Shown here piece after piece: positions 38,219 through 64,000 of a stretch of 64,000 bases of DNA. The notes under the pieces were generated by a model. The model was not told the DNA's origin, searched no databases, and worked only from the letters and a program-made list of their open reading frames with translations. Made by a program: the position numbers and the translations under genes. This DNA comes from Psilocybe cubensis. Taxonomy: Eukaryota. Where the stretch lies: NCBI GenBank assembly GCA_017499595.2, contig CM039000.1, positions 3,162,001 to 3,226,000 on the forward strand. Direction: 5' to 3'. Every line of letters starts with the position of its first letter. Position 1 is the stretch's first letter.

Positions 38219-39742
38219 ATGTCTCGCGAGACAGTAGATGAACCGGGACGGGGCTCCCAGGATAAACAGGAGGAAAAGGGTCAGGAGACGGAGAAGGAGC
38301 TGAAGTATGGAGTGACGGAACTGAAGACGGAGATCGAGATCGCGTTGGAGACGAAGGAGAGAGAGGACAAAGATCCTGATTCCGTCACTATCACCAGCTG
38401 CCCCCTCACGCCTACGACGCCGACTCTCGCCCAGATCCCGACCCCGACGTCGACGATCAACTTCATCAGCGAGAAGGCGCCAGTGCTATCGCTGTCGCTG
38501 CAGATACCCGGGACCGGCCTGCTCGCTCCCACAACGACGAGCGAGCCCTCGTCCTCTGCGCCGTCGTCAGAGCCTACATCCCCAAACCCTCTCGCGGACT
38601 CGGATATCCTCTCACCGCCATCTGAGACACCTCCCTCCTCATCGAGCGCCCAGGCCTCCGCGTCATCCCTCTCCCTCTCTGCATCCACATCCGCATCGAC
38701 CACGGCCGGAACAACCTCGGAACAATGCCTCGTTACCGCGAGCGCCCGGCCGTCATCGTCTGGGGGAGGACTTAACGTTAAGTTCGCACCCCTGCCCGAG
38801 CTAGCACCACGCAAGCGGCGGTCGTCTACGCCGCTCGGAATGGCGGCGCGTGGGCAGCTGATGCGGCGGCGTAAGCAGAACGGGCATATGTCGGTGCAGC
38901 AGCAGCAGCTCGCCGCGCTGGCCGAGGCGGCGGCCGCAAACCCGTCTTGGACGGCCGAGGACCGGGAGGAGGAGCGCTTACGCCAGGAGGAGATCGCGGC
39001 CCGCTATGCACATTACCAGGCGTCTGCGACGGCGCTGGCGGCCCGTGAGGAGGAGGCATTGCTGGAGGAAGAAGAGCAGGAGGAGAGGGAAAGGGAGCGC
39101 AGAGGAGAGTTGATGAAGCTCGAGAGGCCGCGGGGCGGTGATGTTGCCGTGGCCGAACGAGAGCGCAGTCTGGGAAAGACCGTCAAGGGATTTTTGAGGC
39201 GCGTCGGAAGGTCACGCGATGCAGAGTCGGCGGCCAGTGGCAAGAAAGACAGTGGCAAGGACACGGAGATCGCGTTGAAGAGACGCAAGTCAGATATCGG
39301 CAAGCGGCCGCGGGGCACCTCGTCGCCTACTGCTACGTCGCCGCCTGAGGTTCCTCCTGTGCCTGCGCTGCCTCTCCGACCGATTCTAGCTACAATTTCG
39401 TCAAATGGGCCAGCGCAGACGAGTTCGAGGATGAGCATGAGCATTTCCGAAGAGGTGTCCGAAGTGCGACGCCAGCCAGAGCCTGTGCGCGAGGAAGAAG
39501 AGAGCGGGGGTGTATGGGAAGAAGAAATCGGCGGTGCGTTCCCGATGAACGTTGGTCAGACAGAGACCATTGTCGAGGGCCGTGCTGTGTATGCTTCCGT
39601 GGAGACCCCGACGACCACTACCACCAAGGTGGAAGGAGGAACAAAGAGCAAAGTCGACTCGAAGCCGGCAAAGTCTTCTGCGTCTCCGACTCCAAAGAAC
39701 CTGCCGGTCAAGGCAGCAAAAGTAGTCAGCACCAAGTCATGA
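38219..39742 (+). CDS. Uncharacterised low-complexity (S/P/E-rich) protein; single coding exon, probable 5'UTR intron ~37523-37616
   Basis: ~507-aa uninterrupted ORF; central LNVKFAPLPELAPRKRRSSTPLGMAAR and a charged helical segment; upstream GTAAGT..CACTAAT..CAG. Confidence 0.8.
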   Translation: MSRETVDEPGRGSQDKQEEKGQETEKELKYGVTELKTEIEIALETKEREDKDPDSVTITSCPLTPTTPTLAQIPTPTSTINFISEKAPVLSLSLQIPGTGLLAPTTTSEPSSSAPSSEPTSPNPLADSDILSPPSETPPSSSSAQASASSLSLSASTSASTTAGTTSEQCLVTASARPSSSGGGLNVKFAPLPELAPRKRRSSTPLGMAARGQLMRRRKQNGHMSVQQQQLAALAEAAAANPSWTAEDREEERLRQEEIAARYAHYQASATALAAREEEALLEEEEQEERERERRGELMKLERPRGGDVAVAERERSLGKTVKGFLRRVGRSRDAESAASGKKDSGKDTEIALKRRKSDIGKRPRGTSSPTATSPPEVPPVPALPLRPILATISSNGPAQTSSRMSMSISEEVSEVRRQPEPVREEEESGGVWEEEIGGAFPMNVGQTETIVEGRAVYASVETPTTTTTKVEGGTKSKVDSKPAKSSASPTPKNLPVKAAKVVSTKS

Positions 39743-43307: not shown

Positions 43308-45379
43308 ATGGCGGCAAATGGCTGTGTGCAGACACCTACCTTGACGAGGACGGACATCGTGACGTCGGAGAGCGTATTTACGACCACCTCCATCTCGACC
43401 TCTATTTTCCCCTCCTCGATATCCACGTCGATTTTCTCGACATGTACACAGACGAACTCGTCAGTGCCATGCGTCTCCACTCTGACGACCTCAGTGACTA
43501 CGCTGCCAGGTGCGTTTACGGTGTTGTAAACGCTGCTCCTAACATCTGTTTATTAATATCGCTTTTGGTTGATCAGGGAGTACAAGTCTTACAACGCTTC
43601 AGATTACGCGGACGTCTGAGATTCCGATTACGAGCTTGACTACGCTCTTTGGCACGACGTGTACTTCATCGACTAGTTCAACAACGTCGTCGACAACTAG
43701 CAGCACGGGCTCTTCGACAACGCCTACTCTTCCTCCAACTTCGCCCACGATCAATCCACCACCCAATACCAACACACCCTCCAACTCTGCAAGCAGTGGA
43801 ACCAGCTTGGACACCAGCAGCTCTTCCTCTACACCCAGTGTGACAGGTACCAATTTTTTGTCATCTTCTTCAGCGACCATTCCGCCGACTATTAGTCCCA
43901 CTCATTCCGAAACAGCAGGTCCAGGTGGAACTCTTCAAACTCCCTCTGATGGTAACAAAAAGTCGAACAACACTGGACCCATCGTTGGCGGAGTGCTGGG
44001 AGGATTGGTCGCCCTTCTTGTTGTTGGTTTCCTGACATGGAGATATGTGTACGTATCCCAACTTCATTTACTCGAGCATCACTGCCATCATAATTTAATC
44101 CAACGCAACGCTAATTGACGTCCTCTTCCTCCCCTCTCTCTTTAATTGACACTTTTGGTCGCACAGGAAAAAGAACAGGAGGTTCGATGATATCTTTGAT
44201 CCTGTTACGCAGCCCAAACCGCACTATCAGAAAGCTAGCAAGATCTTGAAGGATCCAGAGCCAAAGCCGTACACATATGGCCTTGTTGGGCAGAATACGA
44301 CTAATCCCATTGGGATCAGTCCACCTAGCTCGCCTCCGCCTGGACAGAGTTCATTTAACGACATAGGCCATCAAGGAGGAAATGACATCGGTCCTCAAGG
44401 ACCAGGCAGCAATGGAATCGGACACAACCCAGGAGGAAGCAACGGTATAGGCCCGCAAAACGGGAATAACATGGGCTATCCACCGTCAGGCAACGACATC
44501 GGTCTGCAGCCCAACAACACCCCTGTGCAACACATCCGTAATCCCTCGCTGACGCCGCTCTTGGCAGGCGCGGGGGCAGCTATGGCAGCCTCGTCGTCGT
44601 CGCGGCCATCTTCCGCCGACTCGAGTATGCCCCTCGGCCCGCTCGTCACTCACGCTCCGCAACCCCAAACGTACCCGCCTATGCCCCACAACCCTTCCTC
44701 CACCTCGAGCTATCCGCCTGCCCTACAGAATTGGAACAACGCTCAGGGGTACGCCGCGCAACAGCAGCAGGGAGTATACTCTGGCTCCGCTCAGGGTTAT
44801 GGACCTGGGCCGTCCATGGCTGGCCCGTCTTCCTCCTCGGCCGCATCAAATCCTCTCTCGCAGGGCGGCGGTAGCATCAACAGCCTCGGCTCAGGGTCTA
44901 CCGCACCGTCTTCTTGGGGTGGCGGTAACGCCGGCCCGCCACTCCCAACGATGGTGCCGCTCATCGCTTCCACCTCCCCGACGTCGGCGCAGAGGAACAC
45001 AAGCTACGGCAGCGGAAGCGCGAGCAACAACCGCATATCTACTCTGCAACAATACGAAGACCCGTTCGCGCGCTCGGGAAGCCCCGTCAGTCTCCAGGAG
45101 CCGCCGCGGATTCTGCAAGTCACGAATGCGGAGCCGGGGAGCTTGGATGAGGGGTTCTATGACCCGGCGGTGTATTATGCTGCGGGTACAGCTCCGTTAG
45201 GAGCCGCTCCTGGTTCGCCGAACGCGACGCAAGTAAGCTCGTCGTCGGCCAGTGGTGCTGCTAGTGGCCCCGGACGGCGGCTGAGTGCAAGAGCTGAGAA
45301 ACAGGGGCTTGTGCATCTTGATGGAGGGCAGTACCAGACGCCTGCTCCCCAAGGTCCTCCTGCGTACACCGAGTCATGA
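43308..45379 (+). CDS. Mid2-like Ser/Thr-rich single-pass membrane protein with HLDGG...PPAY tail; 3 exons
   Basis: S/T-rich exons, TM segment GPIVGGVLGGLVALLVVGFLTW, long disordered tail in the 44246-45379 ORF. Confidence 0.82.
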
Positions 45380-46295
45380 TAAATTTTCCATTTGATTTTT
45401 TTGCTCCCCATCTACTAGTTCTTTGTTTTTTCATACCTTTTCTAACCTGTCCCTTTATTTTGTCTGCTGGCACACGCATCCATTTTGGCTGTTTTAAACC
45501 CTTTCTTTCCCGTTTTTTTCTCGTGCTTTGTTGTTCATTTGGGCCTATATGCACGCTAATTCTTTGACTTTGCTACATTTACCACATCTTCATCGCAACC
45601 TTTATCGTCTCATATATCGGACTGAGACCTGTTTCTAACGATGGACACTCATTTTCTTTCTTTCATTGTTTCCTATCGCTACCAAAGCACACTCTAACCT
45701 TCTGGGTACCCTCGGCCACTGTTATAATCTACCGACCTGCATCTTCTTGACAACAGCCCTCTTAAACCCGCCTCGCTGTTGTCCAATCCACTTGCCACTT
45801 GTACCCCCGCGCCACACACATACGCACACGCACCCCATGCCTGCTTCGACTACCCGCCACACATCACCCTCGATACTAAAACTTTTCGCTGCCCCGGACT
45901 ATCTATTTTATTAATCCCTCTACTTCCTTCGATGGGTTGGGTTATGTTCTACGGATACCAGACAGACACATAGTGACGACCTTTTGATGAAATTTATAAC
46001 GGCTTTAGAGTTTTGGTTGTTCTTTGCTATTTCCTTTTCTTTGTGTGACACATGAGTGGCTAGGTCGTGGTTGTGGTCCAGCACTCAGGGCGATGATTGG
46101 CGTTTCTTCAGATGTACTTTTCTGCAAGTTTGCTTTGACCTTTCTTTAGGGTATATTAACTGTGGAGAATGGCCTGCTAAGTTTCTGATATTCCTCAACC
46201 TCATTTCTAGTAATCGAACTAGGTTGGTCTCCTTGCGCGCACACTTTTCCTTCAGCTGCTTACTTCGTACAAGTTAGGATACAGCACAAGCAACT

Positions 46296-47992
46296 ATGCT
46301 GACAGGAAATCGCAAGGCAGCCATTGAAAGGATACCCACAGAGATATGGACAGAATGCGCCGACCAGCTGTCTTTCAACGATCAGAAAAATTTGCTCCTA
46401 ACCTGTCAATTTTTCCGGGACGTATGCCTACGTTTCGTCTTCAAACACAAGTCATTTTATCTGCACGTCTGTAAAGACATGGGATCGGGCAACTGTTGCG
46501 GGCCATTCGCGAGCCGCGTGGAGAATGTGGCTTTGGTGGCCGATAGCAACGCCCTCGCGCCCCACGTCCGCAAGCTGACTCTGCGTTACGACCAAAGTCG
46601 TCCTCGTACCTTCTCCCATCAGCTTAAGCAGTTGTACCCGCTCTTCATTAAATCTTGTCTCGAGCTTATCCCGCGCTTTCCCAACTTACGCTCGGTTTAC
46701 ATCTCGAGCAACAAGCCCGTGGACAAAGCGTTGATGCATGCTCTCGCGCTGTGCCCTCAGCTTGATGAGCTTGGTATGGGCCCTGTTCGGTTCGGAGCGC
46801 ATTCATTGTCCAGGGGTGTGCGTCTGTGCGTCCGGAAGCTAGGGATATACAACAACTGCATCGGGTCCGATACCAATCCGAGAAAGGCTGCTAAGGTGCT
46901 TGACATGTTTTCGGGCGAGCGGCTGGAAAGGCTCGAGGTCTTGTCGCACATCTATGCGCCCAAGATCGCGCACGCTTTAGCCCGGCAGAGTAATTGTACT
47001 CGTTTGACATTCCTTCGCGTGAGGATTTCCCCTGAGGACTTTAAAACTTTCATCCCATTCCTGGTTTCCTGTGCAAATATCGAGGCATTGAGCGTGACGT
47101 TGCATGAAAGTCTGACTTGTAGGGACTCGGCATTTCCCCCTCACTCTTTCCCAAATTCGCTTCCTCAGCTCCCAACATCAGCACTAAGAAAGCTGAACTC
47201 TATCACCGGTTCGGGGGAGATAATTGCACTGATAGTTCCCGGAAGACGAGTGCAGAGTGTAACCACCTTGATCTCTAACCCCATGCCCCGCTTTATGAAG
47301 CTTGATCAGGGAGAATTTGAAGCTCTGGTCCTGCCTCGCCTTGTTGAAAGCAAAGGTCCGGTGAAAAGTTTGGTGCTTGAGGGAAATGTTTTCGGGAAAA
47401 ACATGTTGAACCCTATTTCACTGCGTATGCCGAGCCTGACTTCTCTCTGTGTGTGGCTCGGCGATGATTCTGGTGTCGACACCGACCCCTTCAAGGAGGC
47501 AACAGGAACCCTGGCCATTGTGCGCGAATATCTGGCGCACTGTAAAAACACTCCGGGAAACGAAGCGAAGGTGTTAACACCATTTGTGCGTCACAAAAAA
47601 TATTTGGTACGTCTTGCGATCCTCTGAAGTCCGCGTTTTCAACCATTTTATTCGCTTCATTCTAGATCATTCTTCATTTGATAGCATTAGGCAAGATACG
47701 ACTTCCACGCGACCTAGAACAGCTAGACTTGGTCGACAGGGCTTTTTCTGTTTCCTGGGAGCAACGTTTATTCCAGTGGGACCATTGCCACTTGATGAAA
47801 AGCGAAGAAACCCACGGAACAGCTTATTCATTAAATATGGTCAGCGCCATCTTCTTCGCGATATCTCGTATCTATCCGTCCTTCCGCCTGTTGAACTTGT
47901 CGGATCACGCTCCCGGACACGTTTACTTCTACTGGTACAAAACTCGCTCTGATAAATGGGACTTATGCGACTTCAAATGCGATGGTTATTGA
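46296..47992 (+). CDS. F-box-like / RNI-type LRR protein (paralog 2); intron ~47608-47665
   Basis: IERIPTEIWTECADQL...LLLTCQFFRDVCLRFVFK; collinear similarity to the 25896-27657 gene. Confidence 0.82.
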
Positions 47993-48105: not shown

Positions 48106-51100
48106 CACGGCCGGCCCTTCGTTTAGATCTTGGTTAAGATTCCGACGCTCCGACCAAACTTGAGATCATTCTCAAGAAAATCTCAAAACGGATGCAAATA
48201 CATTTGAAAATTGAGCTCAGGAATATTTTAAATCCGTGGCTTAAGAATGAGCGAAGTAAATACACAGAATAGATTTTACTTAACTCTTGTGCTCAACACA
48301 TTTTGAAACCACGCTCATTAAACATATTTCAATTGTAGCTCTGACCATAATGTCACAGCTTGATCCAAAAGGTGTGCGGGACTTATGACATCATGAAATT
48401 CACTCAACATTGCTTGACATTGTTTTAGTTTGGACTCAAAGCACTGCCGACAACGGTGATACTGTCTATTATTGCAAAGTGTGCTGCGATTCACGCGCCA
48501 GAAAGGCATTCAATTGCCCTGGACATGAACGCACTAGCACTCATCTTGCGGCACTAAGCCGGCAGCGGCAGCCAACACCAGCTAGTTCGACAATCAATGA
48601 AGTCCGCGGTAATCCCACGGCATCCATTTCCAACCACAGAATCATCGACGATGCTTTGAGAGCTCTTTTAGTTTCCTCTTCGTCAAATCCTCGCCAGCCT
48701 ATGTATTGCTTTGGCTGCCCTCCTCTTCAATCTGGAACTTCACATGCAACTCCGTCATCCCCTCCTCTTCAAGCTCCAACCCAGTCTGGCCCAGTTTCTC
48801 CTCTTACCGGCTTTGACTGGAATTTGTACAAGGCAACTCAAGGCAGTACAGATCCTGACCAAGAAGATGAGCCTACGCCTTGTATACGTGTTCGTGAAGG
48901 CGTATGTCAGCGGTTACTTGATCTACTAGATGGTGTTGAAGAAAATGATGACCCGGTAGGGGATATTTTGGTAGCCAGTGAGGAGTCGGACTCGAGTGGT
49001 GCGTGCTTTTTCTGCTGCATGTTTGGCCAACACTAAATACATTATAATGACACAGCTGATGATCTCCCCGCTCGTCCTTCAGTCAAAAAGCGTACACGAA
49101 CACAAAATTTGGATCCTAGGGAGCTGGAAGAATGGTATCCATGGCAGGATAGAATTGTGCGTTCAACTCTATTTTCTGCTCACCAATAAGCTGTTACTGA
49201 CACACTTTTAGACATGTTCTTTAGATATCTTGATGCACTTGCCCCGTTCTGTGTTTTCGCGTAAACAACTTGATTTATTTTTGTGGATTTTACGCGTGAA
49301 CGAAGTTCGGAATGTCCCCAGCATCAAGACTATGAAGACTCTAAATTCTGCACTTCAAAAAATGTGCGGCATTGATACTATTCCATATACAAGCGCCCGT
49401 GGCACAAATTACAGCATGAACAACATATCCCAAATTCTTGCCCAGGTTTGTTCATTAGTGAAATGTTGTGTTTGTGATTTGGTTATTTACCTGTGCCAAG
49501 TAGGAAATGAGCAATCCAAAAGTGCAACCACACCTGAGCTTTTTCCCAGAAGACACCGGCAAGTCCATCCAAGAAGCATGACAAGCTGCAAAATGGTTGC
49601 ACGAAATAATTCCTGAAAGAACGACACCCATGATACGGTTACACAATGCTGACTATTACATTTTTGAGCCGACTATGTTAAAAGATGGCTCATGTGTTAT
49701 TCCGTATCGGTGGTATGTCAAGAGCGGGCACATGTATGCGTGTTCGTGGGTCATGGAAAAGGAAACATCAGAAAATGGAACGGTTGGATGGGTTGTTCGG
49801 AAGGACCGTGAACGCACTATTTTTGATGATCAATTACTCAAGAATTTTCCTGCTCTTTGTCGCAATTGTGGCAGATATAGACTACCTCATCCTTCTCACA
49901 TCATTGGCATGTATTTCTCTACTATCTTAATATTAACATTTACTGACAACTTGCTAACTATAGGTATCCGAGAGGACCAACATCCCGAGATTCTGCCTTG
50001 GACACATACGGATCCTGCTACAGGTAATCGCTGGAGAAATTTGGCACAAGGTCACCGAACAGTGTGTCTTCCACTCTGGCTGTATTGCGATGACACATCT
50101 GGCAATCAGTCCAAGCAGTGGAACAAACATAACAGCTACTTATTTACCTTAGCTGGGTTGCCGCGTGACCAATTGGCCAAAGAATATAATATTCACTTCA
50201 TATGTACCTCAAATGTTGCACGGCCTCTCGAAATGTTGGAAGGAGTTGTTAACCAAATAAAGTAAGCATCTCATTTTGATATTTTGCGCGGCGCGGGTAT
50301 GAAGTATGGCTGAAATCCTCTTAGGTCAGCTCAAGAGACAGGTATATGGGCCTGGGACTGTGTATATAACGAAGTGGTGCTTGCGTATCCAGCAGCATTT
50401 GCTTTCTTAGGTGATAACCCAATGCAGAGTGAGTTTGCCTGCCATATAGGTATGTGCGGCAAGCTGTTCTGTCGGGTATGCTGGGCAAAGGGCCAGGATG
50501 GAAGTGAAACAAATGTTGATCTTTCTGACCTGTCCAATGTTCCAGATTTTAATCAGTCACCATTGTACAGTCCTGTTGCTTCAGAAAATGGAGGCGAGAG
50601 CATACCACACAGTCCAGCTACTTCTGATCATCAAGATGATGTAGCAGTCAGTCGAAAACGCAAGCCAGAAAGCATGGAATCAATGGTCAAACGTATTACA
50701 GCTTTTTTAGAGGTAAGATTTCTTGTTTTCAGTTGACGGTCTATTTACAACTAACAAAACTTTGCTAGACTGGCAGGTTGCGATGCAAACAAGAGACTAT
50801 ACAAATATTGCAGTCCTATCTCAATTTAGCATCCAGTATTGGCTCCAAAACCAAGCTCAAAACCGAGAAAACAAAGACCGGTATCAAGGACACTTACCAG
50901 GATTTCTTTCTTGAGAAGTTACTCACGTCGTACACAAAGGAAAAGGGGCCGATGAAAAAGCAAGCTGCGCTTGATGAAGCAATACAAAATCTACCGGATG
51001 ATATCACAAGCCCAATTTGGGATTTGGACGGTATGGACTTGTTTCTTTGATAGTCTCCTTCTCAGCACTAATGTTTGGTATTTAGAAATCGATCCACATC

Positions 51101-52412
51101 AAGACACACCAGTTGAAATACTTCATGTTGTTTTGCTGGGTTTTGTGAAGTATTTTTGGCGTGACCTTGTTCAAAACCAGCTTAACGATGAAGGCAAAAA
51201 GCTGTTAATTCAGCGACTCAACAGCTTTGATGTCCGTGGCTTGGGTATATCACCCCTTGGTGGTAAGACCTTGGTCCAGTATGCTGGTTCTCTCACTGGC
51301 CGGGATTTCCGAGCGATATTGCAAGTGGCACCTCATGTCATTTACGATCTTGTTCCCACCAATGTCTTTGACGCCTGGGTGTCGCTTTCAAGACTTGTTC
51401 CACTTATCTATCAGCCCAAAATTGACGATATGGACAAATATCTTGTGAATAAGTTTCTTTTTTCACATCTGCCAGAATGTTCTAACAGTTCATACATTTA
51501 GGAGACTCTAGCACAAGAAGTGGATTCATTTTTGATTAGTACGGCTCAATGGACATGTGCTTGGTTTAATAAAAAGAAGTTTCACGTCTTGTTGCACTTG
51601 GTAGAACATGTGCGACGGTTTGGTCCTGCAATCATATTTGCTACTGAATCTTTTGAATCATTCAATGCAGTGATTCGAGCTAAAAGTATTCATAGCAATC
51701 GCCAATCCCCATCGCGAGACATTGCCATGGCTTTCGCCGAAGGCAATTGTATCCGACATTTACTGAGTGGTGGGCTCTTTCTCCAGAATCGCCATCGTGA
51801 CATCCAGCATACTACTGCCAGAGATTGGCGAAGCATTGGTCCAGGCCCAAACAGAATTATTGCCATTGATACAATTATTCCCAGCTATCTTGGGCTAATG
51901 GCTGCCACCGATCCGTTATTTTCATCGGGTATGTTGTTCTATTTATGCATATGAATACTGTTAATCTGACCATGTAATATTAGGACGATGTATAGTCGAT
52001 AAAACCCCTCCCAGGCCTCTTACGCAAACTCTTACTGGCACACTCCTTCCCAATGTTGCCCTCGGAAACCACTCATTTCAAACCTGCAAGCAAGTTCAAC
52101 TCGAAAACGGCGAAAATTGTGAACCAGGACAGTACGTTATAGTGCAGGCACGTCAGCCCAATGGCGCACCTCGAGCACCCTTTGTTGCCTGTGTTAAGGA
52201 AATCGTACTGCAGCTGGGATCAAGCAATAGTGCCAATGGATATCCCGAAGGCCTACTGTTGCAGTCAGTGTCTACAAACCAGGTTAACAGCAAGCTTCAA
52301 ATGCCTTCTCTGATGCCTCTGGAAGATACCTGGTCATTCCTTCCTCTCTCGGTATGTGCAGTTTATACAAAGGTCTTGTACTATTTCATTGTGTACTAAT
52401 CATCTTCATCAG
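48106..52412 (+). mobile_element. CACTA/CMC-like DNA transposon remnant, 3'-truncated; left boundary tentative
   Basis: Contains the transposase pseudogene; candidate CAC terminus at 48106; subterminal hairpin CTTGAGA-TCAT-TCTCAAG (48159-48176). Confidence 0.6.
48350..52412 (+). pseudogene. Multi-exon basidiomycete CACTA/CMC-like DDE transposase, disabled
   Basis: N-terminal CxxC..H..H; LYCDDTSGNQSKQWNKH; FLGDNPMQSEFACH...FCRVC; DTPVEILHVVLLGFVKYFW; KFHVLLHLVEHVRRFGPAIIFATESFESFN. In-frame TGA at 49579-49581; coding similarity ends at ~52412. Confidence 0.8.
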
Positions 52413-52666
52413 GAAAATGGTGTTTGGTTACAAGTTGTTCTAAGTAAATAGTATATTGCTAAAGATACTTTTAGTCTTTGGAATGACCTAGGTAGCTTTG
52501 AGAGCTTTGGAAATCTTTGAAATTACCCAGGTTGCTTTAGTGTCTTTAGGTAATATATTACATCTAGACTTTCCTAAAGTAGTTAAAGTAATTTTAATTT
52601 CTTATTACACTTTAGACTGTGTTAAAGATTCTAAACTAATAAACAATATTTCAATATATATACATA

Positions 52667-55600
52667 CTACCAAATTGTCTGATATGTATATTTGCTCATC
52701 CAATTGTTAATTAGAAAAGCATCTGCAGTATCTAAAATATTATCAGCTGACCAATGAGCAGGTACTAAGGGTACAACCAGTTTTTGACCCTCCCTAATTA
52801 AAGGAAAATTAAAATGAGGAATAAGCATACAATTCTGACGTATATTAGCCAGTGGAATTATAGCACCCTTGGCTCTTGAAGGGGTAGTATTTGTTGTAAT
52901 TTTTGTTATGCGGTACATCATTCCATGATTTTTTTTTGCAATATGTGATAAAGGTGAATACCATTCAACATAAGCCAAAGGAATAGTAGGCCAGGCATCA
53001 GGTGCCGGAAGAGAACCAATATAAGTTTGTATAGTTTTTGGAAGTGTAAAAATCACTCGAACATGTCCAATCTTGGTTCCTATAAAATATAAAATATTAT
53101 ATTATATTGTAGCAATTTTTGAATCTGATTATACCTTGAAGTCCTGTAGATTCTGCATCCTCACTGGTAATTGCAACAATTGTATCAAATTGTCCAGATG
53201 GCAATTTTGCAGATTTAGGAATAGCTTTAACTATAGCCTTTTCATCCGAGTCTTGATCATCATTAATCAATTCTAGATGAAGACGAAACATATTGTAGAC
53301 ATCAAGCTTTTGAAAAGGAAGAGGTATATTATCCAGATTCCGAAGGATAGTAGGATTTGACGAAAATGTGTTCAGGAAAACCTTTAAATAATATGAAAAA
53401 TCTGGTGCCATATGCTTTTCCTCAATCAAATCAATACGCTGATTTATAAAATTAGGCTTTTTGGCAATTGATATTGGCAGTTTGGATATTGTCAAAGATT
53501 TTGGAAAAGGCAATGAATGATTAGACACAGATGATGACAGTAAAAGAGATGGTGGATTCATTGTAATATCTCCATCCTTATCAATGCTAGTTGATTGTGC
53601 TCTATCCATTGATTCTAAGGAAAGCTCCTCCTGATATCCCGTAAATCCTGCAATTTTCTCCCGTCTTGATAACCAGTTAATCATTTGTGGAAATTCATCC
53701 TTTTGATTTGAAGCTCTCCATCCTTGTTTAGCAAAATCAATATGAAGACGCTCAAACATCTCTGTATTATAATTGTCCGTAGTTCCAAACTGCTCTATTG
53801 CCTCAACATAGTGTATAAGGGAGTGAAATTTAGGAATATTGAAATCTTTGCGTGCATTGATATCCAAAAAATAATGGCGATATTGATGGAAACGTACAAG
53901 AGAGTCTTGAAGATAGCCAAGTGTGACTTTATTATGAGTAGAATATTGAGCAATATAAATAAAATCCAATATTGCAGTAACTGCATAAATTCCTTCATTA
54001 GGCATAGAACCAACTAAACATCCCAAAAGAATCTTTGCCATCTGCTTTCTCTCACTGCCAGAGACTTGAGACAATGCAGAAATGCCATTCTTAAAACGCC
54101 GAACACCATATGCTATTGGTAAGCATCGTATGCGCTGATCTAATTTTGACGGTGATAAGGCTTTCTGGCACCAAACTACCAGATGTTTAAAGACTCCTTG
54201 GTAAAGTTGATGAAGAACATCTGGAGTAATAGCTCGGTGTATATCTGCAAGAGGAAATCCATCCCAAAATGGCTTATAGACGCTTCCAGCAACATTGTAA
54301 CTCATGCAATAGTCATGAAAAGAGTTTGATCTGCCGTTTGCCTGATGCTTTCCCTCTTCTATAATAGTAGTAGTCCATTTTTGTGTTCGAGGAGTATGTG
54401 AATTGATTTGGCCCAAATCTGTAGCTGGAGCCTGGCATTTTACACATGTTCCATACTTGGTGCAGGTAACCAAGCATTGTTCAGGATAGTCTGCAACATA
54501 ACATGTAAGAATAGGATGAACCTTTCGAATAGCACCATCGCAGCTGGCCATTTCAACTCCATTATTACCAGCATCTATCAAGGGCAAAAGAACAATACGC
54601 ATAGATTCATGAAATAGACGTTGAATGCGAGAGCGGTGTTGCTGATCATTCATCATGGTTCTATCAAGTTTTTCAACTGATAGATACGCAATTAGAATAC
54701 AGGCATGTTTAGATGGCTTTCTTCGAATAGCTTTTGGAATGTTTCCAATAGTAAGATAGACGGGGTATGCAGATTTTCCACCAGAGAATTGAGTGAGTTG
54801 TGTTTTATCTGTTGCAATAATTATAGGTGCAACCGTTGCACCTGATGGAAGTTTTGACTATAAACCATTATAAATTAACAAATATTACTTTAAAAATGCA
54901 GTAAAATATACCTGTATGGCGTGCCACCATTTTCCAGTCCACATTTCAGAGAATATGCGATTTTTATCTTCAACGTTGCCCGAAAAAACTTTTGCAGGTT
55001 GATACACCATACTTTTAGATAGCTGAGGATCCTTCCATAGGCTTTTAACAGCCTCAACTGGGTTTCGATAGCGTATAGTAAAAGTTTCTTCAAGGCGGTC
55101 TTTAAAAGCAAGCTTTCGCACTTTCCATTTTCCAGCCTTGTCTGGCATAGTATCCAATTTTTTATGAAGGCTTCGAACATTCTTGAATGATAGTCCAAGC
55201 TTTTCAACAACCTGTCGCTATTATCAATATATAAAATAATAATAAAATGCATAGAAATACTCACACCTGGTATTTGAAGTAAGCGATCAATTGCATTTTG
55301 ACCTGGTCCATCCATTACTGCCCACCGAGCTACTTTCCAGTCAAGCTCTGATGCAAATGGAATGAAGCGGTTGGTTCTAGTATCACCAAACTTTTGTTTT
55401 GTATTATAGCTTGGAGGATGGTCCTGACGGATAATAGTTCCAGCATGCTTGGTCCATATTGTTGTCCTATCATCATCATTATCATCCAAGGTGTGTAATG
55501 TGCGCAACCGATTTGCAGTAGTCTGGGGACCTGGGCCAGCTTCTGCGTTGTCATTTTCAAGATTGGCTGGAGTATTGGGAATAAAATGAAACTCTGTTTG

Positions 55601-55924
55601 ACTTTCTTCAGCACCGAAAATGTCGACGTCGGAATATTTACGCAAAAAATCATCCCACTCCTCATCATTGTTGCTCCCAACCTCTTCATTGCTCCGATCA
55701 TTCAAGCTATCTTCCTCGTTATTGCCATCGCCATTGCGCAATAGGGCTGCCATTTCATCATCCATAAAGATGTCGCGATTAGTCAATACATCTTCATAAC
55801 TACCCAAATCTCGCAATTTTCCCTTCATATACCAAGAACATGTTTTCGATGTACTGAGATGGGAATTGAGCCCACTGAGTGTTTTGAACCATTTAGAGCA
55901 GGACGCTTCGCACTGAAAACTCAT
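52667..55924 (-). CDS. Plavaka transposase (CMC superfamily), 4 exons, apparently intact
   Basis: N-terminal CEASCSKWFKTLSGLNSHL; PFASELDWKVARWA; RIFSEMWTGKWW; APIIIATDKTQLTQFSGGKSAYPVYLTIGNIPKAIRRKPS; YVADYPEQCLVTC...CVKC; DVLHQLYQGVFKHL; PKFHSLIHY...FGTTDNYNTEMFERLHIDFAK; LAYVEWY. Confidence 0.93.
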
Positions 55925-56140
55925 ATGGACTAGAAAGTGCAGAGGGGAGAATCAGAGTTGATATCGTGAGAAGAGAAAGAGAAAGAAAGAGATAGAAAAT
56001 ATTGATCAATCAGACGCAACGTGTGTGAGAACAAGGTGATATTTATAAAATCCTATAATAACATGTTAAATTGAATAAATACCTGTCGATATGATATTAG
56101 AGACTGTATAGGAAATCAGAAAGAAAACATACTGATTAAG

Positions 56141-56944
56141 CTAAGAAAAAGCTGTTGTCATTTTTAATAATAATCCATATTCCTGCAGCATTTGCTCTTG
56201 AAGCGTAGCAAGCACCGTAATATCTCGACCAAGTCGTCTAGCTGCCTTGAGTACTTCTGCAGTCGATTTTTTTGTCTTGCAAAAGGCCCTGACAGATTGG
56301 AGCTTGCGATGTACAGAAACAAGAAATGGTGTCTTGTACTTGCAGAATATTTTTTTACGACAAAGCATTTTGAAAGGATAGTATCGGATATCTTTCGTAT
56401 TCCTTGCAATACCTGCGCTTGGTTTGGCTAGAAGCAGCTTGGATACGAAGGGTGTTTCTTCTCTAGTGCTCTCAATAGATGCATGTAGTGGAGATGCCAA
56501 ACTGTAGATTGGACTATCCAAACGCTGTGCACAAGTTGTTGGATAAGAATACGTTGATTTTTGGGAAGGTGTTAGAGAAACATCTTTTGCAGATTTTGCA
56601 TTTGGAAGAGTCTGTCCCAATTAGCAATAAGTACCAATATTAAATCAAGTCAAATTAAAGATGTGCGACGTGCCTCTAAATACTTGTAAATCCGTCTATG
56701 ATGAGCGTGCATTTTCTTTAAAGATGGCAATTTTTTATATTTTGTCCAGTATCGCACATCAAATGTATAAGCAGATACAGGTGCCCTTCTACGTGTAACA
56801 GAAGGCTAAGCAGATATAATGAGATAGGACGGAAAGAGAATAAAAATAATGCTTTACCTCTTCTTCACCGTTTACAGATGAGTCGACAATATCGGAATAT
56901 GCAAGCTCCTCTATAGAAGATGTGCCAGGTGATGACAAGTGCAT
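56141..56944 (-). CDS. Orphan basic protein, 3 predicted exons, next to the Plavaka transposase
   Basis: MHLSS...NGEEE|PSVTRRRAPVSAYTFDVRYWTKYKK...KYLE|TLPNAK...; introns 56806-56857 (GT-AG) and ~56612-56673 (needs a GC donor). Confidence 0.5.
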
Positions 56945-57159
56945 AATAGTAGGAAGAGGTTTAGAAAGAATAATAACAACCACTCAGTAAAACTAGAATG
57001 CGTGAAGGATGAACGTATAGAAGCAGAGTAATGAGGTGTGGGAATTATTAGCGGCAAAAATGAATGTGTTACCGTTGGTTTGTTGTGGCTGTACACACTC
57101 AACTTCTTCTCGAAAACACACTCTTTTATACAAACTATCTGTAAATATTCTAATCAGCC

Positions 57160-58294
57160 ATGCTAAATCCATTTCTATGGGCAAAACAGAAGCTTAGAAA
57201 TGGTTTCAAGACTATAATTTCAAAATTTTCTTTACAAAACAGTCAATATGGCAAGGCGCCGTTAAATCAACATTATCATATAGCTCGGCGTATTCAGAAC
57301 TTTCAGCTAGCAGAAGTTGCATTAATGGCTGGCAGCCAGATTTCTGACTCCTCAATGGTTTTAAATGGTATGTTGTATTGCATCTACCTATATTTCTGTT
57401 AATTTTTTTCAAATATAGATGCTATGGAATATATCGAACATGGCGTCAAATATTCAACAGGAACCCTTACTATTCCTCAGCAAAATCTTCTTGCTGTAGT
57501 ATATAAAAAGGGAACATTACCTATTATCAGCCTTAGTCAAACTCTTGGCAACCTTACGCACTCTGCAACCCAATCTTCATACCCGGATCAACGTCTTGTA
57601 AAAATGTATCTTCGATCTGTTATCCACAAGGCAGTTGAACGCTCTATTCATCTTCTTATTCTTATCGACAACAATATTTGGCCATTTTTGGAAACAACTG
57701 AAGAAATCCTTTTCTTTCTCAAATTGTATGTCGTCATATTCATAAACGATAAAACTTTTTGGTAGACTAACAAATATTCAATAGGAAGGCTGACATTAAT
57801 CGCCATTTATTTGAACTGGGTAGAAATCAAGAAGGGCACAATAGGCAGCTTGAACGCAGAATTAACGCGTACTTACTATATCAACAAGCAAATCAGAATG
57901 CGCAAGAGGCTCTGCATCCATTTCATTCCCTACGACTATCCATTACTCTTCGCTTTTGCATTTTTTTACACAAATTCTATGATTCAACTCCTCATGCCAA
58001 GGAAAAAGCTTTAGCCGCATTTGATCATGCAGTTTTCCATATTTCCAGTTACTGTTCAATGTCCCCAAAATCGGAAAGCTTTATGCTTTTAAAGCTTATT
58101 TTGGATAGCCTCAAAGTATGGGGATTAGGAGAAATACCTCTTCGTCATAGACATTCTACATATCAAGCTCTTTGCAGTAAGTTCAGTGTTTTCAACTACT
58201 GCAATCCTCAACTGACTAATCTCTATGTCTAGTAAAATATGGCATCACTAAAATTGATATAGAAACGGCAACACTTGCAGAGGGTAACCATTGA
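57160..58294 (+). CDS. Highly divergent 14-3-3-like protein; exons 57160-57367, 57419-57725, 57785-58177, 58233-58294
   Basis: LTIPQQNLLAVVYKK (cf. LTVEERNLLSVAYKN); FFLKLKADINRHLFE (cf. FYYKMKGDYHRYLAE); LHPFHSLRLSITLRFCIF (cf. LPPTHPIRLGLALNFSVF); ALAAFDHAV (cf. AKQAFDDAI); ESFMLLKLILDSLKVW (cf. DSTLIMQLLRDNLTLW). No stops after splicing. Confidence 0.85.
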
Positions 58295-58426
58295 GAGTAC
58301 TTACTATTTGATACGTCTTAAATTTTGTCAATTTCTAATTAATTACTTGGATTATTTGAATAATATAATTGAAAACAACATAGCTGAAATTAAGCGAGCA
58401 TTAATAAACAAATAATTACAGCCCTT

Positions 58427-58493
58427 CCTTTTTAGGACCAAAAATAAGTGTTAGGAGATGCATCTCCCATCGCTCATTTTGGTCCTAAAAAGG
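58427..58493. repeat. 67-bp near-perfect palindrome
   Basis: CCTTTTTAGGACCAAAA ... TTTTGGTCCTAAAAAGG (17-bp perfect arms) with core GGAGATGCATCTCC. Confidence 0.9.
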
Positions 58494-58550
58494 CAAAAAG
58501 AAAAATCCTCTTCTCATAAATGTATTCTAGAAAAAACAAAGACATTTACA

Positions 58551-59577
58551 TTACGGAAATTCATTATCAGAATTAAAGTAATCCCAGTCACATTCATCCA
58601 TAGTGGAATATGGATAAGAATATCGGTAAGGATCTGTTGGATGAGCTGGGAAAAAAATGAATGTCGATGGTCGAAGATGCACCTGAGTCCACTTATTGTC
58701 CTCTAAAGTACGCCAAATTAGCTCATTAGAGCCCTCCCAATAATAATCCTCGATATAAGAATCCTCGTCGTGACCCTGAAATAGATAAAATTTCAAGAGA
58801 CGCGGCAAAGATTTCAATTCCCATTCTCCTAGAATTCTTTCTACTGTGGGCTTGAGCAGATAACTGTCTTCAGGTTCCAATGGCAACGGTGTCTTAAAAA
58901 GAAACATTTCCAAGGCTGTGCAGCGAGACAGCATTTCTTTCCATTGGGGAGACTCCCATGGACGATAAGCGTGGTTCTGTTTTATATCCTAAAACAAAGA
59001 TTAGTAAATCAGTATAAACAGTTGAAAGCAACATACCTCTTTCATAGAAACAATATATTTGTACCAAAATGTAACAATTTGGCCTAATATGCCTCTCCAG
59101 CTATCGTCGACAAGGTTTGAAACTGCATTCCTGCATGTTCCACCATGGACATTGAGCTCCGTAATTGACGATAGGGATAGTACTGTTCCAAGCTCTTTAC
59201 AAAGAGCAGCAGACTGCGGCAAATTGACTTCAACCATACGAAGCCCCAAAAACGAAATGCCCAAACGTCCTTAAAATACGGCATGAAAGGCCTTGAAATC
59301 CCGGACAAAGAGTTTGATTGCTTTCTGCTTGGCAAGGACACGATGGCATTTTTGATTGCCTACAAATGCCCGACATTCTTTTCCAGAATAAGAGAAAAAT
59401 TCATCGAAGTCATCGTGATTTTCTGGCATACTTGCAAGAAAGAATTTAAGAATTATTTTGCGAAGCTCTGGTGCTACTAGATTAATATTGATCAAATTAA
59501 TAACCCTAGGACACTCCACTATATTATTTAGACACTCACATTGTTCAATTTCTGCCTCTAAAGTCTTGGCGCTCATT
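58551..59577 (-). pseudogene. F-box-like/LRR-like gene with one in-frame stop
   Basis: LVAPELRKIILKFF (F-box-like start), SSITELNV, LSRCTALEMFLF; TAA at 59271-59273 splits two same-frame ORFs; intron near 58990-59036. Confidence 0.5.
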
Positions 59578-60144
59578 GCAGTCTGAAGTAGCGATGCTGA
59601 TGCCAATCAATGGTTGTACTGACACTTTAAAGCACAAAGATGCAGGCCTAAGATAGTAAAATTATGAGTCTATACAACAAAAATTTAAAACAGAACAATT
59701 ACCAGAAAGTTTGATTAAGTTGTAAGAGGTTGGAGCGAGAATTACAACCAAGAAAGAGTTCAAGCACCGTAGCATTGATGTCAGCGGTTACCTGTAAACA
59801 GATTATATAATACATCCTAATTTAGAACAAACAAACGTTGGAAGATGCGTCTTCAATTGAATCTATTCTCCATTGTCCCATCTTGAATACGGTATGTCAG
59901 TGCTATACCTTTTGTTGATAAAGCTTAACACTTACTCTTGCCACTTAGGTTATAGTGTTTTATTGGGTCTAACATGCAGCAGTAATGTGCAAGATCCACT
60001 ATTTAGTGCAATAATTGCATATTTGACAATCCATGCTATCGTAAATAAACCGCTCACTGGTATGTCAGACCTATATTTCCAAATGATACTGTTAAGCACT
60101 CAGTATTTCCCTTTAGACTAGCAAACTGCATTGACCATGGTTTT

Positions 60145-60731
60145 TGGGAAGCATTAGTACAAATTGCACTTAAAAGCACCGGCATTTTTATTATTTTGGC
60201 GCAACTGCAATATCCATTCTCAAGAACCTTGGTTTACTAGGGCGTCAGGCACTTTACCATTCTCAATCCACTAGCAGTCACACCTGAGAATGTAGGAAAT
60301 AACTTCTTCCTCACACGCTGGCAGGAAAGGATTGGCTGGGAGAGTTCACGCTGGAAGAGTTCACGCTTATAATTACTGCTAATCTAGAGGAAGGGTTACT
60401 GGAGAGACTGGCGGCAGTGTTGTGGAAGGAGGAATGTTACCCTCTACTAGTTGTGGTGCGCTTTCTGCAGGATTCCTTGCAGAATTCTATATCTAGTACC
60501 ATGACCATACAGGTGTGAATTATTCATGCTAATTTTTTTGCGACTATGCTCACCTTTATCAGTTATTGAAAGTCATTTGAAGACTGCACAATCATTTCAA
60601 ATCAACAGACCATTTGCCGCACTGCTAGATTATTCAATGTTGCTCGATTTTGAAAACATAGACATGACTGATCCCGAATGACCACGTCCCTTACGTTGTT
60701 ATCCTTGTACGCTGAAGAATAGAAGAAATCA
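60145..60731 (+). pseudogene. ULA1: Degraded fragment of NEDD8-activating enzyme E1 regulatory subunit (Ula1/APP-BP1)
   Basis: Across frameshifts: WEALVQIALKST; ATAISILKNL; HFTILNPLAVTPENVGNNFFL; FTLIITANL...LAAVLW...YPLLVVVR; SAGFLAEFYI*YHDHT|VIESH; RPFAALLDYS; DHVPYVVILVR. Intron 60513-60562 is retained. Confidence 0.8.
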
Positions 60732-61230
60732 GTAAGCTTATGCTCTCATTTTTTTCAGTTTTGCTGACAGCATGTAGTACCACAGGCTTCTGCCTGACTT
60801 CAACCCCAAAAAGCCACTAATTCAATTGAAAAGCCTAAGGCGCTGGTGTATTATGCATGGACAAAAAGTATGCTACCCTCTGAGACAAAGAGATGGGCAG
60901 CATGGTGAGAACAGTGAAGCTTTGGGTATGTATATAGTGTTTTGTTATTAAAATGTGGTTCTAAATAGGTATGCCTATAGCAGTACGCAAACAACCTCTG
61001 AACAACTGGCGATACGTCTGGCTGTACACCTTCCGCTGAGCGCCCTATCAAACTTTACGACTAAACAAAAAACATCTGGCCAAACATTATCAGTTGAGGC
61101 AAATTTGAGGGGCGTAGGTGTGTCAATTACAGTGTGCATATGTTTTGCTAGGCTTACCTTCTTAGCATAGGATGGGCATGGCGAGGAATGAAAGGCTTGC
61201 CGCCATGATTTCAGAACCGGGATATTTCCA

Positions 61231-61289
61231 TATTGGGACAAAGGTGAATTTGGGAGATGCGTCTCCCAGATTTTCCTTTGTTCCTAATA
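61231..61289. repeat. ~59-bp imperfect palindrome with core GGGAGATGCGTCTCCC
   Basis: TATTGGGACAAAGGTGAATTTGGGAGAT..GTCTCCCAGATTTTCCTTTGTTCCTAATA. Confidence 0.85.
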
Positions 61290-61561
61290 CGGAAATCACC
61301 ACGTGCACTGCACAATCATATCAACGATTCACCTTAAGTCAACTGGCAGTACAAGCAGACCATCTTGTGCATTTCCGCCTCCACAACCATAACTTTCTTG
61401 AGTCTGATAAGCAGTTATGCTACTTGTTGGTCTCCTCACCCCTTCATTTGCTTCAAGTTGACTAACCCCCCCTTGGACTTTAGGCTGCCCGTTTGATGCC
61501 TCTCTGTTACCACTGGCCGTTAGGTTAACAAGCACTCACCCCCATCCATCCACTTCAAGTT

Positions 61562-63090
61562 GATGAGCAGACTGAGCTGCTCATCTTTTTTTTTACCGCC
61601 GCCACCACCCTGTCTGATGTTGTTGGGCAGCTGAGCTGCCCATCACCACACACTTCAATGCAACGTCTTCCTCCTCACCCCCATCCACCAGCTTCAAGTT
61701 GACGAGCAGCTCATGCTGCTCGTCTTTGCTTTTTGCCGCCGCCACCGTCGTCTGATATCAATCGGCAGCTCAGGACTGCCATCTGACATCTTTCAATCAC
61801 GACCACTACTGCCCTGGACTGCTCACCCCCGTCCATCCACTTGAAGTTGATGAGCAGGGTGAGCTGCTTGACCTTTGTTTTCTCCACCACCACCACCATC
61901 TCACTGCCACCACCTCTATCAGAAGTAGATGGGCAGCTATGGCTGCCCATCCGACATGCCTCCATCGCCACCGCCGCCGCCCTTCAGTTTGACGAGCAGC
62001 TTGCGCTGCTCGTCTGTCTCCTCACCCCATCCTCCCTCTTCCAATCGACGAGCAGCCTGTGCTGCTCGTCCTCGGTTTTTCCGCCACCACCACCTCCATC
62101 TGACGTCAACGGGCAGCCTGAGCTGCCCGTCTGACGTGTTGCCGTCGCCGCCACCGCCGCCCTTCACTTTGACGAGCAGCCTGTGCTGCTCGTCTTTCTT
62201 TTCACCCCACCCTCCCTCTTCCAATCGACGAGCAGCGCAGGCTGCTCGTCCTTGCTTTTTCCGCCACCACCACCTCGATCTAACGTCAACAGGCAGCCTG
62301 AGCTGCCCGTCGACGTGTTGCCATCGTCACCGCCGCCGCCGCCCTTCCCTGTTCACCCCACCCTCCCTCTTCCAATTGACGAGCAGCGCAGGCTGCTCGT
62401 CCTCGGTTTTTCCGCCACCACCAACTCCTTCTGACGTCAACGGGCAGCCTGAGCTGCCCGTCTGACGTGTTGCCGTCGCCGCCACCGCCGCCCTTCACTG
62501 TTCACCCCACCCTCCCTCTTCTAATCGACGAGCAGCCTGTGCTGCTCGTCCTCGGTTTTTCCGCCGCCACCACCTCGATCTAACGTCGACGGGCAGCTCA
62601 GGCTGCCTGTCAACGTGTTGCCATCATCACCGCCGCTGCCGCCCTTCCCTGTTCACCCCACCCTCCCTCTTCCAATCGACGAGCTGCGCAGGCTGCTCGT
62701 CCTTGCTTTTTCCACCACAACCACCTCCTTCTGACGTCGACGGGCAGTCTGAGCTGCCCGTCTGATGTGTCGCCATCGCCACCCCTCAGTCTGACGAGCA
62801 GGTTGCGCTGCTCGTCTGTCTCCTCACCCCATCCTCCCTCTTCCAATCGACGAGCAGCCTGTGCTGCTCGTCCTCGGTTTTTCCGCCGCCACCACCTTGA
62901 TCTAACGTCGACGGGCAGCTCAGGCTGCCTGTCGACGTGTTGCCATCGTCACCGCCGCCGCCGCCCTTCCCTGTTCACCCCACCCTCCCTCTTCCAATTG
63001 ACGAGCAGCGCAGGCTGCTCGTCCTCGGTTTTTCCGCCACAACCACCTCCTTCTGACGTCGACGGGCAGTCTGAGCTGCCCATCTGACGT
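61562..63090. repeat. GC-rich tandem array (~150-bp higher-order unit) containing ~20 24-bp stem-loops
   Basis: Alternating GACGAGCAGC-N4-GCTGCTCGTC and GACGGGCAGC-N4-GCTGCCCGTC, e.g. at 61701, 61991, 62047, 62108, 62171, 62227, 62378, 62439, 62527, 62588, 62849, 62910, 63000, 63061. Confidence 0.95.
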
Positions 63091-63412
63091 GTTGGTTATG
63101 AGGATGGTTAACGTGCTGGATGTCCGTGTTGTTGGTCTGTATTTATCCCCTTCACATTCTTAGATTTCTCAATTGACCACCTTTTCCTGGGCCTGCAGAG
63201 ATAACAGAGAAATACTGCTTGTTATTGTCCTTAGTCCTGCCAACACCACCCTCCTCAATTTGATTATCCGCTCATTTCTGCTTTTGCATTCCCTAATGGT
63301 TAACACTTCCTTGGTGTATTATCTCTTATTTGGACATGGTCACATGATGACATGTGCACTACTCGGGCAATCTGTTGCGATAACGGATCTTTGTTTGTTA
63401 CCACCATCTACC

Positions 63413-64000
63413 ATGTCTTCCTATACTCTTTCAACCTCTGAAATTGCTCTTTTGCTTCGTATATTCAGGCATGGAGCCTTTGCTGAAGATGAAGATTACC
63501 TTGAAGATCTGTTGGTCCGTTTGGAGGCACTCAGCAATCCCTGGGATCTGCCAGAAGATCAGTCCACCTACGTTGTCAACTCTGAGACTCTCCATCATGA
63601 TGTAGACATTGGCCATACTGGGAATCTGGCAGGAACTGAAGTTGTGGGTGAGGATATGGTTGAGGATGAGGATGAGGATAGAGATGAGATTGAGTGGGAG
63701 GATGAGGATGAGGATAGAGATGAGATTGAGTCAGAGGATGAGGATGAGGATGAGGATGGAGAAGAGGATAGAGATCTGAACCAGGAGGTTGTCATGCAAA
63801 AAATGCATGTTGTAGATGGCGGAAAAAGGCTGGCAGTGGCTGGTGGGGATCATGGTAGAGGAGGAGGAGGAGGAGATAAAGGAAAGCATCGTGGCAGAAA
63901 GCCCTGTGTCAGAGGAGGACAAAAGGAACCGCGTCAACAAAACCAGGCTTTGTTGGATGTTGTGGGATTTGAGGATGTGGATAGCAGAGTAGCGGAGAAT
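63413..64000 (+). CDS. Acidic low-complexity protein, runs off the window end
   Basis: Frame open from ATG 63413 to 64000: MSSYTLSTSEIALLLRIF...EDEDEDRDEIEWEDEDEDRDEIESEDEDEDED...; absent from the ORF track because it has no stop in the window. Confidence 0.55.
   Translation, partial: MSSYTLSTSEIALLLRIFRHGAFAEDEDYLEDLLVRLEALSNPWDLPEDQSTYVVNSETLHHDVDIGHTGNLAGTEVVGEDMVEDEDEDRDEIEWEDEDEDRDEIESEDEDEDEDGEEDRDLNQEVVMQKMHVVDGGKRLAVAGGDHGRGGGGGDKGKHRGRKPCVRGGQKEPRQQNQALLDVVGFEDVDSRVAEN

Follow-up and report, generated by a model that had tools for sequence, protein, structure and literature searches.

A PlavakaB-type transposon nested in another transposase gene of Psilocybe cubensis, with possible passenger genes

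Introduction

Plavaka and KDZ elements that carry TET/JBP genes were reportedly described by Iyer et al. in 2014. We have analyzed a stretch of 64,000 nucleotides from Psilocybe cubensis (GenBank assembly GCA_017499595.2, contig CM039000.1, positions 3,162,001 to 3,226,000 of the forward strand), here called the window and numbered from its first nucleotide, in which a Plavaka transposon appears to have inserted near the right-hand end, and we consider how much of the adjoining DNA it carries. Were the genes beside its transposase to belong to it, the locus would resemble the TET/JBP-carrying elements in being a fungal transposon of the CMCT/KDZ class with a non-transposase gene between its ends. 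Those elements carry a DNA-modifying enzyme of obvious benefit, whereas here the would-be passengers are a 14-3-3-like gene and relics.

The closest described elements are the PlavakaB elements of Agaricomycetes (Kojima 2025, PMC12730594), whose consensuses we have compared by their end portions. In that work Plavaka transposases typically have DDE, C(2)C and H(3)H motifs, and PlavakaB termini take the form 5'-CATCA..TGATG-3' with target site duplications (TSDs) of 2-3 bp. PlavakaB consensus lengths are 6.2-14.6 kb among those visible in the supplement, one P. cubensis family, PlavakaB-1_PsiCub, has a consensus of 13,577 bp, and a TET-carrying consensus is 24,396 bp. By these figures the usual PlavakaB length of 6-15 kb leaves room for extra open reading frames (ORFs); a length greater than 10 kb is not unusual for PlavakaB, and a long Plavaka is not new. 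The element in the window is like PlavakaB in its PF18759 transposase, its DDE, C(2)C and H(3)H motifs and its CATCAG... terminus. Both ends are defined in the published elements, whereas here the left terminus alone is seen.

Two further systems offer comparisons. Plant Pack-CACTA elements capture gene fragments (PMC6379663). They share with this locus a related transposase superfamily and the presence, inside, of short host-gene pieces and pseudogene-like copies. As described there, however, they are non-autonomous, whereas the window element keeps its transposase; no parent genes are identified here, and the 14-3-3-like gene is complete, its introns looking functional. The KDZ transposons of Cryptococcus are called 'gigantic' in PMC11343200, being larger than most known Cryptococcus transposons and having extra ORFs without predicted domains. 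They differ in using another transposase class and, in that account, in having defined terminal inverted repeats (TIRs) and TSDs and in having been observed to move.

Results

A Plavaka terminus in the last intron of another transposase gene

The plus strand from 48350 to 52372 contains a multi-exon transposase gene, here called TE-U, that is interrupted after its 5' 83%. It has no Pfam match, and its family lacks a Pfam model. The family has 558 matches in Agaricomycetes, typically of 1000-1400 aa, some of them named 'Transposase' in UniRef. Comparison of the TE-U and Plavaka families by hhalign gave a probability of 94.7% (E=5.7e-8) over 328 columns of the catalytic core, which shows the TE-U family, on profile similarity, to be a distant relative of Plavaka over that core. 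There are several paralogues in P. cubensis, including P0266, P0273 and P0277 (13 member sequences), and JR316_0004928 is a paralogue locus.

The paralogue P0266 (1281 aa) aligns with TE-U at residues 1-1068 with 68-95% identity, ending ...EDTWSFLPLS at 52372, and goes on with NILCTVNAPHDC... after the point where TE-U stops. What follows in the window, read directly, is the retained 5' part of the last TE-U intron (52373-52406, plus strand), comprising GTATGT, an ACTAAT branch point and CATCTT. Nothing in the window corresponds to the 213 residues with which P0266 ends. This tail is conserved in all eight paralogues examined (C.VN..H.C ... YQER ... LN.AQMRDA), and the eight tails gave a best match of E=0.11 in the window and none in 52.4-64 kb. 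Back-translated NAPHDC was also without a match in 52.4-64 kb.

Directly after the flank ...CATCTT, 34 nt into the intron, lies the 16-mer CATCAGGAAAATGGTG (52407-52422, plus strand), a PlavakaB terminus that makes the left end of the element, on the 3' side of its transposase gene. It matches the reverse complement of the PlavakaB-1_SLL 3' end at 16 of 16 nt, and its first 13 nt are identical to the PlavakaB-3_ScCi 5' end. The exact 16-mer occurs once in the window, and when up to three mismatches are allowed shuffled sequences average 0.81 matches. The stop codon of the Plavaka transposase gene is 260 bp inside this terminus. Subterminal repeats such as clusters of CTAAAG/CTTTAG are expected in CACTA-like elements, and there is such a cluster at 52459-52615, where five of the 26 occurrences in the window fall within 152 bp. 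Terminus, interruption of TE-U, motif cluster and stop-codon distance together indicate a Plavaka element nested in TE-U, and we regard both the nested insertion and the left end at 52407 as well supported, with little room for doubt. The absence of the remainder of TE-U means that the inserted DNA measures at least 11.6 kb, or else that the junction was removed by a later rearrangement.

An intact Plavaka transposase gene

The transposase gene occupies 52667-55924 on the minus strand and has four exons (55924-55265, 55217-54912, 54857-53135 and 53079-52670), making 3099 nt or 1033 codons. Its three introns are bounded by GT..AG (55264-55218, 47 nt; 54911-54858, 54 nt; 53134-53080, 55 nt). Minus-strand ORFs in 52667-55951 match PF18759 (E=7.8e-89 and 1.1e-20) and DUF6830 (E=7.7e-09) in Pfam, two exons jointly covering positions 1-99 and 106-325 of the 325 positions of PF18759. 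A Crepidotus homologue of 1052 aa could be aligned to the gene by tblastn over residues 32-1052. In an alignment of the window protein with 111 homologues, the motifs DKT, DYPEQ, CVKC, FHSLIHY and NTEMFERLH, which lie in columns at least 90% conserved, are all kept, as are the DDE triad, CxxC and HxxxH. The Pfam matches, the tblastn coverage and the retention of conserved positions confirm that the transposase is apparently intact. Among the matches listed (1027-2930 aa) the closest protein is from Gymnopilus dilepis, at 59% identity.

Collybiopsis confluens accounts for all 15 of the 120 long homologues listed whose transposase is annotated as fused to a Ulp1 protease domain (PF02902). The fusion could be one of gene models, or the domain could be a recurring passenger with a link to ubiquitin-like modifiers. 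On the evidence of these homologues, a passenger tied to ubiquitin-like systems would not be unprecedented in the Plavaka family.

A preliminary description of this DNA, made from the letters alone, had placed an intact Plavaka transposase in a single compositionally distinct block beginning at 52413, and had proposed a mobile unit of more than 10 kb with a cargo different from TET/JBP. The transposase is confirmed, and the start of the block was essentially right, the terminus being at 52407.

Base composition to the right of the transposase

The unity of the block holds in part. GC content per kb is 0.33-0.41 at 52-61 kb and rises to 0.63 at 62-63 kb. GC content at third codon positions (GC3) is 0.21-0.39 in the Plavaka exons, 0.30 in an orphan ORF, 0.29-0.30 in the exons of the 14-3-3-like gene and 0.34-0.39 in those of a gene called F-box-like, compared with 0.38-0.43 in TE-U and 0.47-0.61 in seven host ORFs of the window. 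The frequencies of 4-mers correlate with r = 0.85-0.87 among the segments 52.4-56.0, 56.0-58.3 and 58.3-60.5 kb; the segments compared are short, making this soft evidence on unity. A common composition is thus found over 52.4-60.5 kb only, the array of repeats at 61.3-63.1 kb and the final segment at 63.1-64 kb being unlike it. TE-U has been resident for at least as long as the insertion and yet is less AT-shifted, from which it follows that the composition of the would-be passengers is not simply the result of local decay.

The observed/expected ratio of CpG per kb is 0.39-0.80 from about 49 to about 61.5 kb, and mostly 0.74-1.37 elsewhere. The CpG-depleted zone (49000-61500) covers both transposons and reaches into the array as far as its degenerate first copies. 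This pattern could reflect methylation-driven decay that spared the array, or that is older than the array.

Candidate passenger genes

The region directly upstream of the transposase gene, 56141-56944 on the minus strand, contains one or more orphan ORFs with no Pfam match, including one of 159 aa at 56141-56620. Models of 186-202 aa need weak splice sites, and the orphan is therefore a putative coding sequence. An AlphaFold prediction from the single sequence had a mean predicted local distance difference test score (pLDDT) of 42.9, too poor for a fold search. The orphan ATG at 56944 (minus strand) stands head-to-head with that of the 14-3-3-like gene at 57160 (plus strand), reproducing the spacing of 215 bp noted previously.

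The 14-3-3-like gene (57160-58294, plus strand) is divergent and intact, with canonical introns at 57368-57418, 57726-57784 and 58177-58232 and alternative starts at 57325 and 57355. Its identification, made originally from the letters, is confirmed. The C-terminal ORF matches PF00244 with 50.2 bits (cut-off 33.2), the N-terminal ORF alone scoring 21.7 bits, and 14-3-3 chains in the PDB (4dx0, 6eih and others) match residues 8-195 of the 236-aa annotated protein with E=1.3e-13. The gene corresponds to the NCBI protein '14-3-3-like protein [Psilocybe cubensis]', and some 260 codons run without a stop in DNA of 36% GC. Among 1.84 billion representative proteins its own cluster alone is close (94%) and the next relative is 29% identical; identity to the nearest non-self 14-3-3 proteins is 29-35%. 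A full-text literature search found no paper containing both 'Plavaka' and '14-3-3'.

The public gene model P0121 treats the in-frame segment 58032-58094 (63 bases) as an intron. The 21 residues that it skips align well with the canonical C-terminal helix of 14-3-3, and use of the in-frame ATG at 57160 would lengthen the model by 65 residues.

Compared with canonical 14-3-3 proteins, the Lys of 'YK' and the Arg of 'YRY' are retained, whereas 'GARRASWR' has become 'LPIISLSQ' and the Tyr of 'RY' is His. The Lys/Arg/Arg/Tyr set of 14-3-3, which we take to be the phosphopeptide-binding residues, is thus incomplete here, the arginine pair of 'GARR' being lost and the Tyr replaced by His. These replacements make it doubtful that the protein would bind phosphopeptides in the canonical manner.

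A perfect 17-nt inverted repeat with a 33-nt spacer (58427-58493) separates the convergent 3' ends of the 14-3-3-like gene and the gene called F-box-like. The latter (58551-59576, minus strand) begins with an ATG at 59576 and has an in-frame TAA at 59273-59271 and a good intron at 59036-58989. Its description as an F-box-like gene is not upheld. None of its three ORF pieces matches any Pfam family at E<=10, and the F-box profiles PF00646 and PF12937 do not recognize it. The leads are weak: the N-terminal piece resembles the post-F-box segment of a neighbouring F-box ORF with E=0.033, and a second comparison with that ORF gave E=0.13. In the ESM Atlas it finds clusters of basidiomycete hypothetical proteins, followed by DUF6546 (0.89) and leucine-rich repeat (LRR) families (0.84 and 0.79), all the named families falling under the guide value of 0.9. 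Single-sequence AlphaFold prediction of the C-terminal exon gave a pLDDT of 51.6, again too poor for a fold search.

A ULA1 fragment had also been proposed. We find a stretch of 26 residues (60241-60318, plus strand), bounded upstream by a stop codon, that is similar to human NAE1 residues 53-78 (13.3 bits, E=0.81, a weak match), and all five PDB matches of the stretch are to NAE1/APPBP1. The resemblance is confined to these residues: the stretch has no Pfam match to ThiF (PF00899), the piece just upstream has no NAE1 match, and a search of the block for N-terminal ULA1 motifs (YDRQ/RLWG) found nothing. A 15-nt unit repeated 2.2 times (60335-60367) directly follows the stretch.

The hairpin array and the acidic ORF

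A GC-rich tandem array of hairpin-forming units, with periods of 151, 180 and 322 nt, extends from 61319 to 63100. Two types of palindrome have the common core GCAGC..GCTGC, and a 322-nt unit is predicted to form four stable hairpins at -58.7 kcal/mol (z=-6.5), in agreement with the shared-core palindromes and the stem-loop array already reported. Degeneration and CpG depletion mark the first copies (61.3-61.9 kb), and the well-preserved copies at 62-63 kb have a CpG observed/expected ratio of 1.03. Self-BLAST found no sequence similarity between the array and the rest of the window.

Beyond the array the acidic ORF named in the preliminary description, which has Asp/Glu repeats, runs from 63413 on the plus strand and is still open at the window end (64000). 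Pfam gives nothing below E=0.69 for it, and the ESM Atlas no usable match. Between 55.9 and 64 kb, 66 of the 98 ORFs of at least 45 aa were scanned against Pfam, the others being 31 ORFs of the array and one of the Plavaka gene, and no TET/JBP, F-box or ThiF domain was detected. A separate scan of 21 ORFs gave no TET/JBP match, in accord with the absence of such a motif remarked on earlier.

Candidate right ends

If the element had the length of PlavakaB-1_PsiCub (13,577 bp), its far end would fall about 2 kb past the window. A TIR scan of 40-52.9 kb against 55.9-64 kb gave 141 pairs of at least 14/20 matches, the best of 16/20 being at the level of chance, and none of the pairs combined Plavaka termini with a TSD. 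Used as a query for a right end in 55.9-64 kb, the left terminus matched at best 11/16, at 56188, 57496 and 61701; 22 further sites in the window score as well as 56188 or better, leaving no right end near 56 kb above chance. There are 11 TGATG sites in 55.9-64 kb, none of them convincing. That at 61619 is followed by TT and is TSD-like, but it lies within an array unit whose other copies read TGACG. A candidate at 59780 (15/30 matches, no TSD) was not significant, and the PlavakaA terminal consensus gave 32 matches where 32.25 are expected by chance.

Self-BLAST of 52-64 kb against the window revealed matches only within the array and the acidic repeat, and no second copy. With 120 long Plavaka homologues as queries, fused gene models included, tblastn found no match in 56-64 kb. 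We propose that the right terminus is either past 64 kb or no longer present.

Other features of the window

The window begins with the C-terminal end of a Ty3/gypsy-type polyprotein (3-713, plus strand; Tf2-1-like SH3 and chromodomain). Outside the region described above there are also the F-box ORF already mentioned (46278-47627), a zinc-cluster factor fragment, hSac2, a piece of a fungal kinase and UPF1. Long plus-strand ORFs without a Pfam match lie in DNA of GC 0.54-0.65 at 1693-3714, 5733-7028, 38147-39742 and 44150-45379, and these have no DNA similarity to the array at 61.3-63.1 kb. Scans of 48-64 kb with Rfam and for tRNA genes gave no matches.

Discussion

We propose that an autonomous PlavakaB-type DNA transposon, of the CACTA/EnSpm-like 'CMCT' clade, would have entered the last intron of TE-U, an older and distantly related resident transposase gene, by DDE cut-and-paste. 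From the left terminus at 52407, towards which the intact transposase gene runs leftwards, the element would most likely extend right through the equally AT-rich 56.0-60.5 kb. It would then contain the orphan ORF, the diverged 14-3-3-like gene, a stop-interrupted relic of LRR/F-box type and the NAE1-like fragment, as passengers or captured sequences carried passively between the termini in a manner comparable with capture by plant Pack-CACTA elements. The array and acidic ORF may belong to the interior of the element or be one more nested piece. We infer that 56-60.5 kb, or more, lies within the element, that the passengers arose by capture and that the element is mobile. We lean, if only slightly, towards this explanation as a whole. 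For the AT-rich genes as far as about 60.5 kb, a position inside the element is plausible, unproven, and by a little the side on which we would come down; a single element occupying all of the 11.6 kb is less likely. The proposal of a mobile unit of more than 10 kb stands with respect to its left end and to the insertion of at least 11.6 kb, unless the region has been rearranged, and lacks a right terminus, a TSD or a second copy in the window. A distinctive cargo is likewise favoured by the AT-rich GC3 common to three ORFs and the Plavaka gene, while two of its supposed members, the F-box and ULA1 genes, are not established.

Several observations weigh against an element that continues to the right with passengers. 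Within the window we found no right terminus or TSD and no second CTAAAG cluster, and the TGATG sequences at 61498-61852 and 62767 are inside array units and resemble decayed TGACG. The 5' end of PlavakaB-1_PsiCub was not found in the window, and its visible subterminal motifs are unlike those of the window element. No Psilocybe protein is among the 120 listed Plavaka matches of 1027-2930 aa. The 14-3-3-like protein forms a single cluster with two member sequences on one contig, and no paralogue is present among 257 candidates from the protein databases. It is thus single-copy at the protein level, with no sign of amplification along with an element. Against the Plavaka block the array has a 4-mer correlation of -0.18, and 63.1-64 kb one of 0.27-0.36. 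Lastly, the common AT-richness could be that of a silenced neighbourhood rather than of one element.

A denial of the insertion itself would be that TE-U is simply truncated, and that CATCAG at 52407-52412 is a natural 3' splice site. GTATGT ... ACTAAT ... CAG does make a well-formed 40-nt intron, after which a short terminal exon, ENGVWLQVVLSK followed by a stop codon, can be read. Yet all eight paralogues examined go on with a conserved tail of which TE-U has none, and a 16/16 match to a Plavaka end located 260 bp from a Plavaka stop codon is very unlikely to arise by chance. We consider this extremely improbable. A more substantial rival accepts the insertion and sees a mosaic of a transposon island, in which the Plavaka element spans only about 52.4-56 kb and a deletion or rearrangement has removed its right end. 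On this view the orphan, 14-3-3-like and F-box-like genes would be fast-evolving, lineage-specific residents, or relics of a silenced region that is AT-rich and CpG-depleted, and would not be mobilised. The missing right end and TSD agree with this, as do a single-copy 14-3-3-like protein without orthologues in the protein databases and a CpG depletion that already affects TE-U, outside the element, from about 49 kb on. There is also a precedent in Marasmius, where a deletion took part of a Plavaka element together with its flank. However, with the remainder of TE-U absent from the window at least one further event must be assumed, and local decay alone is insufficient to explain a GC3 of 0.29-0.39 in the ORFs of 56-60.5 kb when TE-U and the host ORFs of the same window have the higher values given above. 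We judge the mosaic rather unlikely.

Equally doubtful, and compatible with our preferred explanation for 52.4-60.5 kb, is the possibility that the array and acidic ORF, from 61.3 to 64 kb and on, form an insertion of their own, within the Plavaka element or next to it, so that the block comprises at least two units. The contrast in GC content and CpG ratio between the array and 52-61 kb points this way, as do the low 4-mer correlations of the array and of 63.1-64 kb with the Plavaka block, and the lack of sequence similarity between the array and the rest of the window. Against it, no termini, TSD or transposase-like ORF delimit such a unit, the Plavaka and TE-U proteins have no tblastn match in 61.3-64 kb, and internal tandem arrays are common in CACTA-type elements.

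A bolder possibility is that the Plavaka element carries a complete and open 14-3-3 adaptor gene, diverging faster than any cellular 14-3-3, as a transposon-borne signalling adaptor. It would have a role in regulation of the element or in interference with host control, and the F-box/LRR and NAE1 sequences would be older captures from ubiquitin-like pathways. We regard this as a long shot. The preliminary description had linked the cargo to SCF, neddylation and phospho-signalling with the caveat that the theme might be coincidental. It probably is, resting as it does on two unconfirmed identifications (F-box and ULA1).

What is firm is ordinary: an AT-rich, CpG-depleted island in which a transposon sits inside another. 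As a test case the locus is nevertheless clean, because the interrupted intron and the known paralogue predict the far junction. If the reading with passengers is true, an autonomous DNA transposon would here have captured genes, a concrete case from the genome of a mushroom, and if the extra genes move with the element, the passenger repertoire of fungal Plavaka/CACTA-like transposons would extend beyond the TET/JBP dioxygenases.

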